Shown here: one piece after another, positions 4,657-26,804 of the stretch
Position numbering within the stretch: the first letter of the stretch is position 1
How the letters are laid out: each line of letters starts with the position of its first letter
From: a virus
Taxonomy: Duplodnaviria; Caudoviricetes
Strand: one strand, 5' to 3'
DNA: 64,000 nucleotides
Virus record (IMG/VR): IMGVR_UViG_3300014205_000175
Location: 1 to 64,000 of that record
Notes under the pieces: generated by a model
What the model was told of the DNA's origin: nothing
The model's input: the letters and a program-made list of their open reading frames with translations, nothing else
Databases searched by the model: none
Position numbers and translations under genes: made by a program

Positions 4657-4665
4657 ATCATTTGG
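4657..4665 (+). promoter_or_regulatory. Candidate late promoter of capsid operon
   Basis: ATCATTTGG, 26 nt before ATG 4692. Confidence 0.5.
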
Positions 4666-5200: not shown

Positions 5201-7366
5201 ATGACCACTCTGTTCGGTTCCAAGATTGCGCAAAATGGCGCACACGGTGTTTCCAACCAACTCACCCATCTCGTCGAGCACATCTCCAACGTCGTGAATG
5301 GCAGCCAGATCGCTTCGGCTAGCGTTGCCCGTGCGGCGATTTCGACCGAGAGCCTGCGTGACGAAGAAGTGCGCTCGCTGCAAAGCTCGGTGGAAAACCT
5401 CTCGACCAGCCTCGAAGCGATCTCGCATACGCTGGGTCTGGAAAGTATCATGCAGGCTTCGCAGATCAACGCGGCTACGGTCGCCGGTCTCGTCGCTGCT
5501 GATGCCAATGCGTTCTTCGCTAACCGCGTCAAGCCCGCTGTGTCGACTGAGAACATGCAAGTTGTTCAGTACTCGGGCGCCGATGGTTTCGATGCTCGTC
5601 CGCTCGCATTGGAAGCCTACGACGAACGCGACAACCGTAACGCTGCCGTGTTCTCGATCGCTTACAACATGCAAGCATCGCGTCAGGATGAATTCGGTGA
5701 GACGCTGTTCCCGACGATCGTTGTCACGCCTGACCAAGTTGGTCTGTCGGTGACTGTGCGTCTGATGACGGTCTACAATGAGCTCTATCGCCAGATCTCC
5801 GGTGCGATCGATCAGTACGCGAAGAAGAACATCATTCGCGCTATCGCTGATCCGACGATCCTGAAGAACGAGATGACGCGTATCATCCCGGTGCATCGTG
5901 CTGAGTCCACCGACAAGTTCGTCGACGGCGCGATCGTTGCCCCGCGTACGATCAGTCTCGAAGGTGAAGACATCGTCACCGCTCCGCTGGCTGTGGGTAA
6001 GAAGCTAAGCCTGCTCGGTATCAGTCAAACGGACGCGCTGCTCCAGTCTGGCGTGATGGACGTGACCGACAGCATCGAGCCGTCGATCCAGCTGCAGTAC
6101 GTCTACGTGCAAGTCGGTACCGACGTACTGAAGTTCGATTGCAGCAACCTGCCGCTGTCTGAGTTCGTTGCCGCGACGCAGAACAACTACCGCGTCATGC
6201 AGCTGAACTTCGAAACCAGCAGCGTGCTGCTCAACAAGGACACGATCAACGCCGATGGTTCCGCTCTCGACGCTGCTGGTCCTCTCGCTTCGCTGGCCGC
6301 CAACGATCTGATCGTGCGTCTGAGCCTGAACCTCTCGGGTAGCGTCAACATCGAACTCGGCGACACGCAAGTGTTCGGCAACATGGTCGATGTGTTCTCG
6401 GTGCAGAACAACGCTGGCGAGACCGTGAGCCTGTCGGCTGCTCCGGCCAACGCTCTGGTGGCGGCTTTCGCTGCTGCAAAGGTTGTGGGTTATGAACTGA
6501 TCGCGTATCGTTCGAACCTGAACCGTCGTCAACGTGGTCAGCTAATCGACACGACGTACTACACGCAGGTCTACAACATCATGTTCCGTAGCCCGATCTC
6601 GGCTATCCATCCGGTTACCATGGATGGTCAGACCGATGCGAGCGACCTGCAAGCTCTCGTAACGGCTACCCGCATCCGTACGTCGAACGCCGCTGTGCGT
6701 GCGCTGATGGATGCTGCCAACACGCTGCGCGAGTATGTCGATGCGCGTGACTACGTTGGTGTCGGTCCGGATACGCTCGGTATGGGTCGCTTCTTCGTGC
6801 GTCCGACGTACTTCGAAGAGACCGTCGACATGAACGATATCGTCGACTCGGTGAAGTCGCACGAGCGTGCTGCCGACATCCAAGCAGCGCTGGTCAACAA
6901 GATCCGTGACTACGCGTATCGCATGTATCGTGATTCGGAATACAAGGCTGCTGCTGATGCGCTGGCAGGTGGCGTGGCTCCGGTCCCGACCGTTATCGTC
7001 GCTACCGATCCGGTGCTGGCTCGTTACCTGACGGTGACGGGTGATCTGCGCACTCTGGGTGGTGAATTCAACGTGCGTGTGGTCTCGACTCTGGATCGTC
7101 GTGTCGCTGGCAAGATCTTCCTGACTTTTGGTGTGTTCGACGAATCGCGCAACACCGCGCCGAACCCGCTGAACTTCGGCAACATGGGTTGGAGTCCTGA
7201 ACTGACCGTCGTGCTGCCGATCAGCCGTAATGGCCAGATCTCGAAGGAACTGTCGGTCGCACCGCGTTTCCGTCACATCATCAACCTGCCGTGTCTGTCG
7301 GTGCTGCAAGTGACCAACGTGCCGGATGTGACGAACAAAGTCGCTCTGCACTTCAAGACGGTCTAA
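5201..7366 (+). CDS. Major capsid protein (phiKZ gp120-like)
   Basis: 721 aa, strong RBS, strongly biased codons. ALEAYDE, YN..ASRQDEFGETLFPTIV and N.NRRQRG.LID motifs. Lies between the helicase and RNAP beta genes as in phiKZ. Confidence 0.9.
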   Translation: MTTLFGSKIAQNGAHGVSNQLTHLVEHISNVVNGSQIASASVARAAISTESLRDEEVRSLQSSVENLSTSLEAISHTLGLESIMQASQINAATVAGLVAADANAFFANRVKPAVSTENMQVVQYSGADGFDARPLALEAYDERDNRNAAVFSIAYNMQASRQDEFGETLFPTIVVTPDQVGLSVTVRLMTVYNELYRQISGAIDQYAKKNIIRAIADPTILKNEMTRIIPVHRAESTDKFVDGAIVAPRTISLEGEDIVTAPLAVGKKLSLLGISQTDALLQSGVMDVTDSIEPSIQLQYVYVQVGTDVLKFDCSNLPLSEFVAATQNNYRVMQLNFETSSVLLNKDTINADGSALDAAGPLASLAANDLIVRLSLNLSGSVNIELGDTQVFGNMVDVFSVQNNAGETVSLSAAPANALVAAFAAAKVVGYELIAYRSNLNRRQRGQLIDTTYYTQVYNIMFRSPISAIHPVTMDGQTDASDLQALVTATRIRTSNAAVRALMDAANTLREYVDARDYVGVGPDTLGMGRFFVRPTYFEETVDMNDIVDSVKSHERAADIQAALVNKIRDYAYRMYRDSEYKAAADALAGGVAPVPTVIVATDPVLARYLTVTGDLRTLGGEFNVRVVSTLDRRVAGKIFLTFGVFDESRNTAPNPLNFGNMGWSPELTVVLPISRNGQISKELSVAPRFRHIINLPCLSVLQVTNVPDVTNKVALHFKTV

Positions 7367-7387
7367 GCGTTAGTCTATCGCTACCGG

Positions 7388-7427
7388 AAATCGCTCCGAC
7401 GGGTTCACGCCCGTCGGGGTGGTTTTT
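7388..7427 (+). terminator. Rho-independent terminator of capsid gene
   Basis: AAATCGCTCCGACGGG-TTCACG-CCCGTCGGGGTGGTTT followed by Ts. Confidence 0.75.
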
Positions 7428-7438
7428 AAAAGTTCTTT

Positions 7439-7447
7439 ATCCTGTGA
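7439..7447 (+). promoter_or_regulatory. Orphan candidate late promoter
   Basis: ATCCTGTGA, identical to the motif before ruvC (22179), but with no downstream ORF. Confidence 0.5.
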
Positions 7448-7603
7448 GAGTCAATTAACGTGTAAAAATAGCAACAGAACATAGGCTAGATAGCGTTTAG
7501 AGCGCCGCTACGCCGTTGTTGGACTAAGAGCTAAGACTAATCCTACCCTTTTCCGCACCCTCCCTCACAGGCCTTTTTACGGGCCTGTGAGGGAGGGGTT
7601 TTT
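7446..7603 (+). ncRNA. Candidate structured small RNA (~155 nt)
   Basis: Lies between the promoter motif and a second terminator. No ATG on the + strand. Nested pairings AGCAAC/GTTGTT, GGC/GCC, TAGCG/CGCTA. Confidence 0.4.
7557..7603 (+). terminator. Rho-independent terminator
   Basis: CCCTCCCTCACAGGCCT-TTTTAC-GGGCCTGTGAGGGAGGG followed by a T-run. Confidence 0.75.
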
Positions 7604-7621
7604 CTGTTTGGGCTATGGACC

Positions 7622-7633
7622 CATATATAATAC
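7622..7633 (+). promoter_or_regulatory. Candidate early promoter CATATATAATAC
   Basis: Exact 12-mer also at 10653 and 40493, with a one-mismatch copy at 44668. Resembles the phiKZ early TATATTAC motif. Confidence 0.65.
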
Positions 7634-7684
7634 TTGGACCCTGCCAAGTTGGTAAGTCTGTAAATCTGTTTTGAAAAGGTGTGA

Positions 7685-8977
7685 GTGATGCTCAGAGATC
7701 TAGTTTCCATCTCGGCTCGAACGGCGATTGCCACGAGCTACATCACACTGTCGGGCTATAGTAACAACAATCGCATGTTACTGCAGTCGAGTCAGTCTAT
7801 CACGTCACCGTCGTCGGCACCTAGCGTCTATATGCAAGACATCTATAGACTAGCTGAGAACCGCATGGTGTTATGTCAATATGTATATAATCAAACCAAT
7901 AGGGATGTATCACTAATACTGAGAACTGGGGTGCGACAGATCGTACCTCCGACTCCAGGACATTATTCAGGTACGGTTATTATCCGTAACGTTTATATCA
8001 TTCATAAAAGCAATACTCCGACACTCGACAAGTTTTACTATGACTCACTGAAGGATTCGCACCAGGAGAACCAAGAACTCGTCTATGTACGAGACCAGTA
8101 CCTGGAGTTCAGAAAAGCCTCTCAACCCGATCACATGTGTGTCATGATCGATGCCGTCGTCGACGGGACATTACTGGAGGAGCATCGCAGCCTGTATGTG
8201 CATAATCGCGATATGGTGCTATCGATCGAAGCGGTCGATGTTGCCCCGCATCATCCTTTTGATGCTTTAGAAAGCAGTAAGGAGCGTAACGAACAGCTAT
8301 TAAAAGACCATATCGGCGCCGGTGTGGTAGTGGAATTCATTGACAATAGCGGGGGTACTCAGGAGCGTTATTTCCATGTAGGGAAACAGATTTATTCAGT
8401 GCGCTCACGACGTGACCCGACGCGTGCTGATGGTATCTATGTGTTTAAGACTTATGTCGATGCAGGAGGTCAACGACATACCTTATCGAACTATTACGAG
8501 CTTAATAAAGCCGAAGAGGAGCTCGGTTTATACACTAGCTTTGAGATGGCGGTGAGCGGTGGCGATATCAAAACATTACGTGAACAGGAGCTAGAAAAAC
8601 GCAAACACGAAAACCGGCTACTGCAAACCGAACTCGAACAGCTCAAAAGCCATAGTGAACAAGAGCTGCTCGCTATCAAACTCGATAATACGCGTCAAGA
8701 GGTAAATTTTAAAGAACGGGTTAATCAGCTAGACCAGAGTTTGAAAGAATCCGAACATGCGCGTAAAATGGCGCAAGAACGCTGGGATCTAGAGAAGCTC
8801 GATATGCAACGACGCCTCGAATACGATCGCAACCGTTACGCCAACCAAGACATGGAACGCAAGGATTATTATGAGAATCGATCCCATGTTCGCAAGGATT
8901 TTACCGAAGGATTGAAGCTCTGGCCTGTGTTACTAACAGCTGCGGTAGGTGCTATCGCATATGTAACTAAAAAATAG
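7685..8977 (+). CDS. Hypothetical protein with coiled coil and C-terminal hydrophobic anchor
   Basis: 430-aa ORF, start uncertain. E/K/R-rich coiled coil and terminal LWPVLLTAAVGAIAYV. Confidence 0.75.
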   Translation: MMLRDLVSISARTAIATSYITLSGYSNNNRMLLQSSQSITSPSSAPSVYMQDIYRLAENRMVLCQYVYNQTNRDVSLILRTGVRQIVPPTPGHYSGTVIIRNVYIIHKSNTPTLDKFYYDSLKDSHQENQELVYVRDQYLEFRKASQPDHMCVMIDAVVDGTLLEEHRSLYVHNRDMVLSIEAVDVAPHHPFDALESSKERNEQLLKDHIGAGVVVEFIDNSGGTQERYFHVGKQIYSVRSRRDPTRADGIYVFKTYVDAGGQRHTLSNYYELNKAEEELGLYTSFEMAVSGGDIKTLREQELEKRKHENRLLQTELEQLKSHSEQELLAIKLDNTRQEVNFKERVNQLDQSLKESEHARKMAQERWDLEKLDMQRRLEYDRNRYANQDMERKDYYENRSHVRKDFTEGLKLWPVLLTAAVGAIAYVTKK

Positions 8978-8991
8978 CAAGGAGATTTTTT

Positions 8992-10623
8992 ATGCAACAC
9001 TTAATGCGACAGCTAATAGAGCAAGACGCGCCGAAGATGAATCATGTCATGGTGCGCGGGCTAGCGGCTTATAAGGTCAGTCGCATCGAACAATACATCG
9101 ATAATGTGTTTCGTTCGGCGGCACGCAGTTTTCCGGCTGGACTGGAGTATGTGGATTCACAGCGCTGCAGTCCACTCGAAGAGTATAGCGAAGCCACTCG
9201 TGTGCGTAACAATCGTCGCACTGCTGATATAGCTCGTTCTGACATTTATCTGTGTAAATACCAACTGCGCTGGCAAGGTCGTAACTTGCCGGTGAAGTAT
9301 ATCTATCTGCCGTTTTTGCGCGAGTCCGGCGTGATGTGGTTGGGAGGGGCGTGTTATCACGTCTCGCCGGTATTAACCGATCGGGTCATCTCGGTCGGCT
9401 CAGATAGTATTTTCGTGCGGTTACTGCGAGATAAGCTCACCTTTCGTCGCTGCTATCATGGTTACATCGTAGATGGTCGGCGTGAGACGGTACATGTGAT
9501 CTGGTCGCAGATCTATCGTAATAGCTCATCGAAGAAGAAAGTTCTCCCTACGACACGCGCCAACACTACGGTGCTGCATTATCTTTTCGCCAAGTTGGGG
9601 TTTAATGCAGCGATGCGTTTGTTGCTGGGTTTCGACCCAGTGCTCTCTGAGACCCAGTTCGATCCGGAGGCTTACCCGAAAAAGGACTGGGTGATTTGTT
9701 CCTCGAATCAGGTTAAACCCACGACATGTCTGGGAAACTTTTATAACCCCACCAACATCCAAATGGCTATTCCACGTAGCCGCTGGAACGCTACCGTGAA
9801 GAGTATCGTCGGTAGTGCTTTTTATCTATTCGATCACTTCCCATCACGCCTGACTCTTAACGCACTCGATAACACCAAGGTGTGGATGATTTTACTTGGC
9901 CACATCATTTTTAGTGGCAACTATACGGAGGGCAAGCTCTATGAGTCGATCAGCGAGCATTTTAATTCACTCGAAGAGTATGTCGATGAGGTGATCTTCC
10001 GTAAGCTCATGGAGTCAGGCTATCCGGTCAGTAACCTCTATGACCTCTTAGTGCTGATGGCGCAAAACTTCAACGACTGGATCGCCACCAACCAAGGTAA
10101 TCTCACCTCGGTATATGGTAAGGATCTGGAAGTCGAGTATTATGTCGCGTACGAGATCACTGCTGGGATATTTCGCTTTGTCTTTAACCTCAACAAACTT
10201 GCCGCACGGCGAGAACTGATGGAAAAAGACGTCGTCGACATGATGAAGCGCAACATCAAGACTCGGGCAGTGCATAAACTCACCTCAGGGAATCTTGCGA
10301 TCAGCGGTGTCAACTATTCGGGTGACAACATGTACCCGAAGGTCACCGCTATTCTAGCCGAGCAAGAAAGCCTGCCCGGACCCAAGCGCGGCAAGCATAA
10401 ACGTAAAGTCCCTGATGAGACCAAGCGCTTTCATACTTCGATGCTGGAGATCGGCTCGCTACTGTATTTGCCGAAGAATAAACCCAACTCGACTTCACGC
10501 ATGAACCCGTATACGAGCTTCGATCCTGAGCTCGGAACGATCGTGCCTAAGATGTATCAGGATCTCCTCAAGCGCACACAGTTGATGCTCGAAGGACACA
10601 TGCCAGAAGACCTGCCACGTTAA
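8992..10623 (+). CDS. rpoB: Non-virion RNA polymerase beta-like subunit (phiKZ gp123-like)
   Basis: YLPF...G.M.LGG..YHVSPVL.D, F..LLRDKLTF.R and terminal R.NPY. 543 aa, two genes after the capsid gene. Confidence 0.8.
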   Translation: MQHLMRQLIEQDAPKMNHVMVRGLAAYKVSRIEQYIDNVFRSAARSFPAGLEYVDSQRCSPLEEYSEATRVRNNRRTADIARSDIYLCKYQLRWQGRNLPVKYIYLPFLRESGVMWLGGACYHVSPVLTDRVISVGSDSIFVRLLRDKLTFRRCYHGYIVDGRRETVHVIWSQIYRNSSSKKKVLPTTRANTTVLHYLFAKLGFNAAMRLLLGFDPVLSETQFDPEAYPKKDWVICSSNQVKPTTCLGNFYNPTNIQMAIPRSRWNATVKSIVGSAFYLFDHFPSRLTLNALDNTKVWMILLGHIIFSGNYTEGKLYESISEHFNSLEEYVDEVIFRKLMESGYPVSNLYDLLVLMAQNFNDWIATNQGNLTSVYGKDLEVEYYVAYEITAGIFRFVFNLNKLAARRELMEKDVVDMMKRNIKTRAVHKLTSGNLAISGVNYSGDNMYPKVTAILAEQESLPGPKRGKHKRKVPDETKRFHTSMLEIGSLLYLPKNKPNSTSRMNPYTSFDPELGTIVPKMYQDLLKRTQLMLEGHMPEDLPR

Positions 10624-10652: not shown

Positions 10653-10664
10653 CATATATAATAC
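10653..10664 (+). promoter_or_regulatory. Candidate early promoter CATATATAATAC
   Basis: Exact copy of the repeated 12-mer. Confidence 0.65.
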
Positions 10665-10715
10665 GTGGAAGCATTGTGGGTTTTAATACAAGGAGGTAGC
10701 GAACAACAGCACTTG

Positions 10716-10820
10716 AACACGGTTGACTGGCGTGAGTTCGTTAGGACCGCATGTCTGCACGATCATCTAGTTCTATAGTTAACTGCTACGGCGGACCGAG
10801 AACTAGTCGCAACCGTGTTT
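10716..10820 (+). ncRNA. Candidate structured RNA element in a long 5' leader
   Basis: AACACGGTTG pairs with CAACCGTGTT, and CTAGTTCT pairs with AGAACTAG, inside a ~230-nt non-coding stretch. Confidence 0.4.
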
Positions 10821-10891
10821 ACCATCTGAAAAATAACCGTGCGGAGCAATTCGAAAAAATGAAGAATGCAACATTTAGCTAGGAGAGCGAA

Positions 10892-12688
10892 ATGGCCTTA
10901 CCTGTGCCTCATGACATCTTTATCTCACAGCCAATAGAGTTTGCTGCCGGTCAACCTCCAGTGATGCCTCCGATATCGGCACCGCCGGACCTGGTGAGTT
11001 GGCTACCGTATATCGTATCGAGGGTAGCCAACGAGGTGACTTCCAAAGCCGGGGCTAACCCGTCGAGAGTTTTTACCTATAATCTACTTAGTCTCAATGG
11101 CTGGAACAATCAGTATTTTACCGAAGCGGTAGAGTTGGCAGTATGGCTAATCAAAATAGAGCTCAATCGCCGCACCCACACTAACGTCGAGGCAGCGATT
11201 CCCGATAGTGCTGAGAAAGCTGTCACTCTCATGACGTCGAAATACGTCTTCGAGTTTCCCGAACTAAAAGCATACTCACAGCCACAGTTGATCGATATCG
11301 CAATGACCAACTACGGCGTATTAAACTCACTCAAACAGGAAATAGCTAATATGCAACGTTTTGCCGGTCAAGCTCCGATGGCAGCACAGCAGCCGATGTA
11401 CCTGCAGCAGCAGCAGCCGATGTACCCGCAGCAACAACCGATGTACCCGCAGCAACAGATGTATCCTCAGCAGATGCCATCACCGATGATGCAGCAACAA
11501 CCCATGTATCCGCAGCAGATGTACCCTCAGCAGCTGCAACAGCCGATGATGCCGGCGGGTTTGGGTGTTGCTCAGACTGGGCAAATATCTTCTTCGGGTG
11601 GTGCACCCTTGCAACAGCAGATGGCTCAGTCGAATCGCTACTCAACTGCTGCCACTAAAACCACACCGGTTATCATTGTAGAAAAGGAAAAGGAGAACCG
11701 TTCCATGACTACTATCACTAACGTTGTTGTGAAGCCGCTTCAAGAGGCAGAAACGATGGACCGTCAGCAACACACCTTGTATTTTGCCGGTAACAGCTAT
11801 CCGCTCGATCGCTTTGCTCGTACAGCGGACATGGAACGCCAAGTGCGCGATATGGCTGAAGTGGATGATGGTGAGACTACTTCAGTGTATCTCAATCCGA
11901 CGGCCATCATGACGACGACACTGGAGAACGTGGTTTTCGAATCGCGTTTCATTCAGCGTCAGCGTCAACATGCCGGCGAAGAAGTCGATGTGTTCCGCTG
12001 CCTGGCGATCAACGTCATTCCGTTCATCTGCCATGAGTCGTATCGCGACATCATCGAGACCATCGTCAACAAGACGAGCCTGGCTGAAATGGCGACAGAG
12101 TTCAAGACGATCAGTACCAGTCTTGCCAATACCCAGGAGGCGAACTATCGGCTAGAGATGGTTGACATCCTCGAATACCTTGACCGCGAGATGACGAAAC
12201 TCATTCTGCGGTTCTTGCGTACTGAGATGGCAGCCGATATCAACATCGATTCGATGTCGGCTGATGGTAAAGACCTGGGTGCTTACATCGCTGGCAACTT
12301 TAGCGAACACCACATCGCAGCGTTCAATCGCTTCGAGAAGGAGCTCAGTAAATCGCTTAATTTCATGTCGCGTGAAGACGAGCAGTCGCTGCGGGAGACG
12401 ATTGTTGATGACAGTGGGTTGGAAGTGACGCTGGTAGCATCGTCGGTGTCGGTAACGGTCATCGATATGTATAATCGTGAGCTGGGCATCAATCTCAAAG
12501 ACGGTGCTTACATCATCGACGCCAATCGCCATCGGCTGCTCTATGAACTTGCCAGCAGTCTTGATAGCAACAAAGGAGCGAAGAACTGGGTGTCGAACAC
12601 CGACTACCTCGTGACGCGTGACGACGTTCGTTACACGTTGCACAAGAGCTACGTCACCGACAACCAGTACTTGATCCGTAAGGCGTAA
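10892..12688 (+). CDS. Hypothetical protein with internal Q/P/M/Y low-complexity region
   Basis: 598 aa, AGGAG RBS, QQPMYP repeats between two globular-looking regions. Confidence 0.8.
   Translation: MALPVPHDIFISQPIEFAAGQPPVMPPISAPPDLVSWLPYIVSRVANEVTSKAGANPSRVFTYNLLSLNGWNNQYFTEAVELAVWLIKIELNRRTHTNVEAAIPDSAEKAVTLMTSKYVFEFPELKAYSQPQLIDIAMTNYGVLNSLKQEIANMQRFAGQAPMAAQQPMYLQQQQPMYPQQQPMYPQQQMYPQQMPSPMMQQQPMYPQQMYPQQLQQPMMPAGLGVAQTGQISSSGGAPLQQQMAQSNRYSTAATKTTPVIIVEKEKENRSMTTITNVVVKPLQEAETMDRQQHTLYFAGNSYPLDRFARTADMERQVRDMAEVDDGETTSVYLNPTAIMTTTLENVVFESRFIQRQRQHAGEEVDVFRCLAINVIPFICHESYRDIIETIVNKTSLAEMATEFKTISTSLANTQEANYRLEMVDILEYLDREMTKLILRFLRTEMAADINIDSMSADGKDLGAYIAGNFSEHHIAAFNRFEKELSKSLNFMSREDEQSLRETIVDDSGLEVTLVASSVSVTVIDMYNRELGINLKDGAYIIDANRHRLLYELASSLDSNKGAKNWVSNTDYLVTRDDVRYTLHKSYVTDNQYLIRKA
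11385..11550 (+). repeat. Imperfect tandem repeat encoding QQ(P)MYPQ
   Basis: cagcagccgatgtacccg-like units repeated about 7 times. Confidence 0.85.
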
Positions 12689-24633: not shown

Positions 24634-26751
24634 TTAGTATTCCGAAAAATATCGGGTAAGTGTGGGTGTTGTAACAGCTAAGGTAGGTGTCGTAATTTGT
24701 AATGAACTGGTGCCCGAAGTACCTGAAGGCGTAACACTGGATTCTGTTGGTGTTGAACCCGATCCTCCACCAGTATCCCATGACAGTCCTGTCATATTGA
24801 TACCAGTAAGGGCACCTAACGCTATATCGCCTGAAGACGGTATGCAACTTATGAGGGCACCTGAGACACCGTCTGCTTGAGTTCCTTGATCTCCTACCGC
24901 ATAGACGGCAATACCATTTGGCGATGCTGCAACTCCAGTGAAAGAGTTCTCTTCATCATCAGCAATATCGCCTAAATTATAATTATAATCCCATAATGAG
25001 TCACCAGTACTGTCCCAACAAGTAACATATGTTTTATTGTATGTCTGAGGGTCATACTGCCCTACTATATAGATAGCTGCACCATCAGGCGATATTGCAA
25101 CACCCCATAGATAATCATTGCCATTAGAATGACCTATCGAGCGTTGCCATGCTCTAGTACCGCTAGTATCCCATTTGGTGACATAGCCATTAATATCACT
25201 GCCTCCTAATCTATTGACATGTCCAACTGCGTATATCGCCGCACCATCTGGCGATATGGCAACATCGTAAAATCTACTGGTGTTACCTGATGCGGTTCGC
25301 GACCATATAAGACTGCCAGTATTACCCCACCGCGCAATATAGTAACCACCAGGAGGATAAATTCCTACTGTATAAATGGCAGCACCATCCGGCGACACTG
25401 CAACATTTCTCCACTCATTAGCGGTATTGGCATATGCTATCGAGCGTTGCCATATGAGGGCACCGGAAGCATCCCAGCGAGTGGTAAATGCTGCACCATA
25501 ACCTAATGTTTGAGAAGACTGATATCCTACTGCATAGATAGCTGTGTTGTCCGGTGATATATCGACCCCATAAAAGCGATCATCTCCAGTACCTCCTATC
25601 GCGCGCTGCCACACAAGACTACCGTCAGTATTCCAGCGAGTGATATAAGCATCACAACTACCGGCGGTCTGAGAATACTGACGTCCTACCGCATATATTG
25701 CTACACCGTCAGACGAAATAACGATATCCTCGAAATAGCTTGTGCTACTTCCATCTAGCGAACGCTGCCATACTAGAACACCGTTAATATCCCAACGAGT
25801 AATATATGCATCTGGTTGATCTGCGGTTTGAGAGGACTGGTACCCTACTGCATAGATAGCATTACCGTCAGGTGACACAGCGACTTTTGTAAAACAATCG
25901 GTAGAAGCGCTGTCCGCATTAGCTACCCAACCTTGAAATTCATAAGTGGTGAAAGCTACTGTTGCAGACCATGCCGACCATCCATATATCGCGCTATGAT
26001 GTCGAACACGCGCGTAATATTGGTTGTTTTCTGCTAAATAAGCACTAGGTAACCAATTCGTAAAGTTTGCCGTCCCTTCGTAATACTGGGTGAGCGTAGC
26101 AAAGTCAGGTGTCGCAGAGATCTCCCAACGTACCTGGTCTTGCGTTTGAATATCCCCATGGAATTGAAATGCCGATGAAATAAACTCAGGTTTCATAGAC
26201 ACCCCAGTAGCGCCATTAATCGGAGTGAGGATACTTGGTGTGGCGATCGAAGCTGCAATCACCGTGACGGCAAAGGCCTTGCCGTTGACAGTAAACCCCC
26301 CTGCGCCATTAGCGGCAGGCGTGTAAGTGATGACTTCACCGTTACGTACTACGTTACCATTAGTAGCTGTAATAGTGTACGTAGTGAAACTATCGTACGT
26401 AGTAAGGGTATAGGATGTCGCCTGACCGCGAGTGGTAGTTGTAGGACCTTCGATTGTAACGCCGCTATTGACGACGGTATCGGGCAACGATGTCAGCGGT
26501 AGCTTACCCGTAGCATCCAGCAACGCGAGACCGTTAGCGCCCGTTTTAAACAGACTGAGTGCTATTTTGCTATTAGCATCCAGTCCTACAATGCCGTTGG
26601 CGATGTTAATCGTGTTGAGCCGAAGTAGGTTGAGGTTATCCGAAGCAGCTACCGCGGTGATGGCACCAGTACCACCGAGCACCACCGGCACGACGTCATC
26701 TACACCGACGTCATTATTGTAGCCGGCAGGGTTAAACATGTAACGAGGCAT
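24634..26751 (-). CDS. Tail fibre / receptor-binding protein with beta-propeller
   Basis: Start MPRYMF after AGGAG. N-terminal half parallels 861..2942. Seven VA.SPDG.AIY.VG...W...G.L.WQR blades. Confidence 0.75.
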   Translation of the reverse strand: MPRYMFNPAGYNNDVGVDDVVPVVLGGTGAITAVAASDNLNLLRLNTINIANGIVGLDANSKIALSLFKTGANGLALLDATGKLPLTSLPDTVVNSGVTIEGPTTTTRGQATSYTLTTYDSFTTYTITATNGNVVRNGEVITYTPAANGAGGFTVNGKAFAVTVIAASIATPSILTPINGATGVSMKPEFISSAFQFHGDIQTQDQVRWEISATPDFATLTQYYEGTANFTNWLPSAYLAENNQYYARVRHHSAIYGWSAWSATVAFTTYEFQGWVANADSASTDCFTKVAVSPDGNAIYAVGYQSSQTADQPDAYITRWDINGVLVWQRSLDGSSTSYFEDIVISSDGVAIYAVGRQYSQTAGSCDAYITRWNTDGSLVWQRAIGGTGDDRFYGVDISPDNTAIYAVGYQSSQTLGYGAAFTTRWDASGALIWQRSIAYANTANEWRNVAVSPDGAAIYTVGIYPPGGYYIARWGNTGSLIWSRTASGNTSRFYDVAISPDGAAIYAVGHVNRLGGSDINGYVTKWDTSGTRAWQRSIGHSNGNDYLWGVAISPDGAAIYIVGQYDPQTYNKTYVTCWDSTGDSLWDYNYNLGDIADDEENSFTGVAASPNGIAVYAVGDQGTQADGVSGALISCIPSSGDIALGALTGINMTGLSWDTGGGSGSTPTESSVTPSGTSGTSSLQITTPTLAVTTPTLTRYFSEY

Positions 26752-26804
26752 CTTAAGAACTCCTGTGAAGAAATCTCTCTGTTTCCACACGATGACAAAG
26801 TATA

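Follow-up and report, generated by a model that had tools for sequence, protein, structure and literature searches.

Behind the major capsid gene of an uncultured phiKZ-like jumbo phage lies a 321-nt gap with two long hairpins, which raises the question whether the DNA between them encodes an RNA of its own and, if so, whether that RNA serves the assembly of the phage head. The window analyzed here comprises the first 64 kb of a virus record of 202.8 kb (~75% complete), the whole of which is referred to as G000. The capsid gap is among the longest gaps behind hairpin-bearing genes in G000, and only one other such gap has two long hairpins. The capsid protein shares 43–47% identity with its best named relatives (Burkholderia FLC9 and Ralstonia RP12), and the locus matches the gene order of phiKZ, in which a head gene, the capsid gene, the PHIKZ122-position gene and the gene of a non-virion RNA polymerase subunit follow one another. 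From the capsid gene onwards, the locus is laid out as follows:

5201–7366, + strand: major capsid protein gene of the phiKZ gp120 family (phrog_3231 major head protein, E 9e-182; PF25620 PhiKZ_MCP)
7386–7427, + strand: T1, a 19-pair hairpin (G-U included) running into a U-tract, z about -5.5; predicted terminator of the capsid mRNA
7439–7447, + strand: ATCCTGTGA, a putative late-type promoter motif of the form ATC-N3-TG(G/A)
7446–7557, + strand: 112-nt body of the predicted RNA, free of ORFs; in the predicted fold, the A-rich 5' third is unpaired and is followed by a weak irregular hairpin at 7478–7520 and a weak 3' part
7558–7603, + strand: T2, a 17-pair hairpin with its U-tail
7620–7638, + strand: early-type promoter motif (CATATATAATACTTG), 23.9 bits, predicted to serve the following operon without involvement of the unit
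7688–8977, + strand: gene at the PHIKZ122 position (phrog_7727/7286)
8992–10623, + strand: PHIKZ123-position gene for a subunit of the non-virion RNA polymerase (phrog_2943)

The original prediction read this arrangement as an orphan late transcription unit, in which a terminator of the capsid gene at 7388–7427 is followed by a start-codon-proximal motif, ~110 nt without ATG and a second terminator at 7557–7603. Folding bore out both hairpins, at 7386–7427 and 7558–7597, the latter with a U-tail to 7603. A hairpin followed by a late motif is the standard junction of G000: the motif comes 4–39 nt behind 17 of the 65 post-gene hairpins, and the commonest spacing at such junctions, 11 nt, is found exactly in three of them, T1 included. 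The TTAT(G) terminator tail that the cited part of PMC10914365 describes for phiKZ was rejected as a source of the motif; it occurs in 0/65 hairpins of G000 and therefore does not explain the 7439 site.

The 9-mer named in the original prediction is present at 7439–7447, but the literal sequence is not enriched, with two exact copies in the window and 10 matches when one mismatch is allowed, fewer than the 15.5 expected. It is the degenerate motif that is real. Unseeded motif discovery in 140 upstream regions yielded two motifs, the AT-rich early type CATATATANTACATG and ATC-N3-TG(G/A). A matrix of the latter, trained without the region upstream of 7688 and hence without the 7439 site, is sense-biased in G000 (33 versus 12 regions at 10 bits) and mostly hits 15–30 nt before starts. 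With 12.4 bits, the 7439 site ranks about tenth among all positions of the 203-kb genome, and its score is reached by 4/20,000 dinucleotide shuffles of the local stretch. The same matrix holds in an independent genome, G001, with 23 sense versus 4 antisense hits at 8 bits and 10 versus 1 at 10 bits. Moreover, the motif is kept 21–29 nt upstream of the first head-operon gene at six loci of the clade (L023, L026, L005, L011, L013 and L009), which is the position of the phiKZ late promoter p119L.

Late promoters of phiKZ consist of 5'-TATG-3', start at the G and are read by the non-virion RNA polymerase (PMC7598289, PMC12809450), which requires further, undefined downstream determinants beyond this core motif (PMC12809450). 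Similar to these promoters, the present motif is short, ends in TG, lies 15–30 nt before starts and precedes virion genes as well as, at the p119L position, the head operon. It differs in its longer consensus without the TATG core, the 7439 site reading TGTG. We infer that the 7439 motif is a late promoter, which acts like one by position but has a consensus different from that of phiKZ. By analogy with TATG(+1) of phiKZ, transcription would start at G7446 or the next base.

Other late-type sites in the window include those at 4657(+), 22179(+), 26793(-), 46928(+), 50286(-) and 60721(+). The + strand sequence TCCTGTGA at 26761–26768, read on the opposite strand, is the Shine-Dalgarno region of the gene 24634–26751(-); it was rejected as a promoter copy, the motif of that gene sitting at 26793(-).

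Among the 33 intergenic late sites of at least 10 bits in G000, 31 precede an ORF and one lies inside a palindrome; only the 7439 site leads into a terminator. The end of T2 is 158 nt from the predicted start, within the 250 nt allowed for the intrinsic terminator of phiKZ-type short RNAs. Because of the rank of the promoter, its terminator-bound position and the standard junction, a late RNA of about 155–158 nt is probably made from this unit. Thus sequence statistics (promoter rank, position and terminators) lend good support to the core of the original prediction, an orphan late unit from which an RNA of ~155 nt would be transcribed.

The body of this predicted RNA has neither coding content nor notable structure. 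The absence of ATG was confirmed for 7446–7557, where ~1.8 would be expected at the given composition and none would occur by chance about once in six. Six-frame reading and a search for Shine-Dalgarno sequences found no ORF of at least 10 codons behind such a sequence between T1 and T2 on either strand. An 18-codon ORF on the minus strand ending near 7427 was dismissed, having neither Shine-Dalgarno sequence nor promoter. A read-through tail of the capsid protein was also rejected; the stop is TAA, and the 20 codons that run through T1 are absent in relatives.

The claim that the RNA is structured did not hold. The stretch 7439–7603 as a whole folds with z -3.5 because it includes T2, and 7446–7557 alone gives -17.3 kcal/mol at z +1.47, with 94.6% of shuffles folding as well or better. 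The best sub-window, 7468–7525, has z -0.78, and none is significant. The complementary segments proposed to pair all lie where the original prediction places them, but as a set they score -9.8 kcal/mol, and only GGC/GCC (7484–86/7512–14) occurs in the predicted fold. Consistent with the remark that no known family was recognized, an Infernal-type Rfam check gave no match at gathering score in the window, phage pRNA, 6S, tRNA, tmRNA, CsrB/Rsm and CrcZ included; at E up to 10, there were only hairpin-type chance matches far below gathering. A tRNA-like fold was considered for its D-arm look (TAGC...AGAGC) and TTTAGAG loop and was rejected for want of an acceptor or T arm, and ARAGORN found nothing on the body at lowered score. 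At normal ARAGORN score, G000 as a whole (203 kb, record ~75% complete) has no tRNA gene.

To place the unit among relatives, about 40 distinct capsid loci were compared, the late-motif matrix being valid for the nearer clade only. In the tree, the window groups with L001, L005 and L085 (support 96/95), two of which have 82–86% capsid identity to it, and in all three the slot behind the capsid gene is empty. They have one terminator and a gap of 125–133 nt (117–133 nt with L022 included), compared to 321 nt here. T2 plus the DNA behind it aligns to this single terminator region (L005, 0/1000 shuffles; L001, p 0.001; L085, p 0.009), whereas T1 and the body align to none of the three, and T1 shows no similarity to the relatives' terminator. 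As T2 aligns and T1 and the body do not, T2 would most simply be the ancestral capsid-gene terminator, with T1, the promoter and the body gained on the window's branch:

7367–7550, + strand: lineage-specific extra block of ~185 bp (T1, promoter and body; ends approximate), absent in L001, L005, L085 and L022

A match of 13 of 15 bases between 7456–7470 and the bases behind the L001 capsid stop was not significant (p 0.064; L005, p 0.27). The combination of late motif, ORF-less stretch and second hairpin was found at none of the about 40 capsid loci, within the range of the matrix just given. The original prediction had named a lack of conservation of its motif and pairings in related phages as a refutation, and at this locus that is what the comparison shows. 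Two other assemblies carry the identical sequence (100%), possibly from the same sample as the window, and no relative was found with a capsid identity between 82–86% and 100%. Among sequencing runs, none of RNA is listed as containing the sequence, and the single DNA run spanning it may be the one from which the window was assembled. For the body, blastn gave no homolog in phages and plasmids, nor did blastn and nhmmer in G000 and the 165-kb G001. Five sequence patterns retrieved no homolog from viral contigs, the 12 matches of one 16-mer having random flanks. A single-sequence covariance model found no match over 523 kb of loci, G000 and five records; these records are only 44–84% complete, and absence elsewhere in those genomes is therefore not proven.

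The slot itself is labile. In L008, L025, L011, L013 and L082 it contains a single small gene or several, most of them preceded by an early-type promoter; in L036 it holds a TnpB-like stump, and in phiKZ PHIKZ121. The stump, about 200–420 nt behind the capsid stop of L036, is a TnpB-like N-terminus (KAFKYRLFPT...) without intact start, located behind the capsid terminator. The accessory ORF at L013:5293–5691 encodes a tandem-repeat protein with units of ~24 residues (…PELCMAAVQQ.G…). At the end of PHIKZ120 in phiKZ (L060:3010–3095), the capsid gene stops at TGA, followed by ~25 open codons before the terminator.

Our leading and still tentative reading is that the unit is a stranded accessory cassette of moron type that makes a dispensable late RNA. 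We propose that the phage's lineage acquired ~185 bp downstream of the capsid stop codon and upstream of the ancestral terminator of that gene. These would form an ordinary junction (terminator, 11 nt, late promoter and leader) that leads to no gene, most likely the remnant of an accessory cassette at a site where small genes come and go among relatives. T1 would now terminate the capsid mRNA, and late in infection the non-virion RNA polymerase would start at ~G7446 and halt at T2, yielding an RNA of ~155 nt with the terminator as its sole stable structure. This RNA would be dispensable for head assembly, and a selected structure is probably absent.

The stranded cassette is favored by the class and rank of the motif, its hold in G001 and before the head operon, the hairpin-to-motif junctions with three at 11 nt, the empty slot of the nearest relatives and the accessory genes behind their own promoter in others, as well as by the unstructured body and its lack of a found homolog. 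Similar to moron-type cassettes (PHIKZ121 and the small ORFs in L008, L011, L013 and L082), the insert occupies the same slot between conserved neighbors and brings its own terminator and promoter. It differs in having no protein-coding gene and no recognizable pseudogene, and in a late-type rather than early-type promoter. The last point argues against the stranded cassette, as the accessory genes of this slot in relatives use the early type. In addition, a lost gene has left no trace: the search for one found no Shine-Dalgarno sequence, no start codon and no translated match better than E 0.25. The intact promoter and T1 fit recent gene loss and equally selection for the RNA, and with all copies 100% identical (maybe one sample) there is no closer relative to tell drift from conservation of the body.

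It is possible, though on the unlikely side, that this lineage has instead gained a functional accessory sRNA of its own. Such an RNA "moron" would be produced late and would bind a host RNA-binding protein such as Hfq (class II-like) or pair with host mRNAs via a short seed. The top-ranked motif, the two intact long hairpins without ORF remnant and the position as sole promoter-to-terminator unit among the intergenic late sites all suit such a gene. Many base-pairing sRNAs fold weakly outside their terminator, which likewise fits this reading. A further hint, besides the U-tail, lies in the 5' part:

7464–7478, + strand: five A-R-N triplets in a row, unpaired; possible, weak Hfq distal-face site (five reached by 1.7% of shuffles)

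ARN runs of that kind occur three times in 37.6 kb of intergenic DNA. The run is one of several features tested and therefore not significant after correction, so it is a borderline signal that weakly hints at Hfq binding. Antisense to the phage's own genes is not above shuffles, with a longest stretch of 11 nt against a shuffled mode of 11–12 and a best duplex of -30.3 that 2/25 shuffles equal or better. The body has a single GGA, rather than the many in loops expected of a CsrA/RsmA-sequestering RNA, and is therefore not a CsrA/RsmA sponge.

Short RNAs between promoter and terminator are proven in phiKZ, where the cited part of Putzeys et al. (2024, PMC10914365) gives 17 candidates, among them the 141-nt TU237, which is ended by T131 and lies upstream of PHIKZ302, and a 71-nt RNA before PHIKZ221. 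For 201phi2-1, 11 sRNAs are given in the cited part of PMC11512511, and neither source, in these parts, reports one behind the capsid gene. According to these accounts, the present unit resembles them in phage group and design, being an ORF-less unit of less than 250 nt that runs from a phage promoter to an intrinsic terminator upstream of a same-strand gene. In contrast to the predicted unit, those RNAs are described there as seen by sequencing and northern blot, with several conserved among relatives; the unit has no sequence match to them, lies behind the capsid gene, and its terminator is followed by the next gene's own early promoter. With promoter, terminator and no ORF, it is thus a candidate short RNA of phiKZ type on sequence features, not homologous to any. 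The missing homolog counts against an accessory sRNA, since the phiKZ and 201phi2-1 candidates are, in the parts cited, conserved within or across genera. It is unlikely that this nucleus-forming jumbo phage has recently picked up an accessory gene that encodes only an RNA, transcribed late by the non-virion polymerase, whose product sequesters a host RNA chaperone through the ARN run and U-tail or silences host mRNAs; if true, it would mean that accessory slots of chimalliviruses trade RNA genes besides protein genes. Very little is known about what small RNAs do in lytic jumbo phages, for which a strong, late unit lacking an ORF offers a clean candidate.

An attenuated late leader is quite unlikely. 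It would yield mostly the short RNA, and some read-through of T2 would express the 7688–10623 operon late, with positive feedback through the polymerase subunit. There is precedent in phiKZ and five other phages, where, according to the cited part of PMC10914365, 34/42 5'-UTR terminators yield both a short and a long transcript, and the unit and the operon share a strand. In addition, 7441–7448 is identical to part of the T2 3' arm and could pair with the 5' arm (7564–7571). This antiterminator was rejected, as the terminator fold is stronger by 28 kcal/mol; the alternative pairing lies mostly upstream of the inferred start and could therefore form only in RNA that reads through T1. Moreover, an early promoter of the operon's own lies at 7620–7638, and L001, L005, L009, L015 and L022 have the same motif in that position. 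T2 appears to be the ancestral terminator, and the relatives manage without a late promoter. Elsewhere in the window (10653–10892), a very strong early-type motif (26.8 bits) stands ~240 nt upstream of the gene at 10892, an unusually long leader.

It is improbable that there is no separate transcript, a reading in which the strongly expressed capsid gene has tandem terminators with this stretch as a long spacer, and in which the motif is inactive or matches by chance. The downstream determinants required by the phiKZ late polymerase (PMC12809450) would allow for an inactive motif, and two or three hairpins stand behind the capsid gene in L030, L051, L054 and L057. The spacers at these four loci are 30–70 nt, not 130, and both the rarity of the motif score among shuffles and a T1-to-motif spacing equal to that of gene-bearing junctions speak against chance, mimicry of a TTAT tail being out as well.

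A structured, prohead-binding morphogenesis RNA is highly improbable. The pRNA of phi29 is essential and has a strong structure that its family conserves with covariation. The unit resembles it in length and as a phage non-coding RNA proposed for head assembly, and it adjoins the capsid gene and has a late-type promoter; it shows, however, no stable conserved multi-helix fold and no Rfam match, and no homolog was found, also in G001 and five other records, all incomplete. The morphogenesis role suggested in the original prediction is unlikely because the three nearest relatives lack the unit and no equivalent was seen in about 40 relatives. As the unit is confined to a single uncultured phage, lacks structure and has no homologs, comparison cannot put it to the test, and it tells little about conserved features of head assembly.

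Of wider use is the clade's late-promoter consensus, ATC-N3-TG(G/A), which exceeds the TATG of phiKZ in length and allows late promoters to be predicted from sequence within this clade. Beyond the window, at G000:141836(+), an early-type promoter is followed by a 17-pair hairpin 23–60 nt on and a gene start ~190 nt on, an arrangement that is possibly an attenuated leader or a short RNA.
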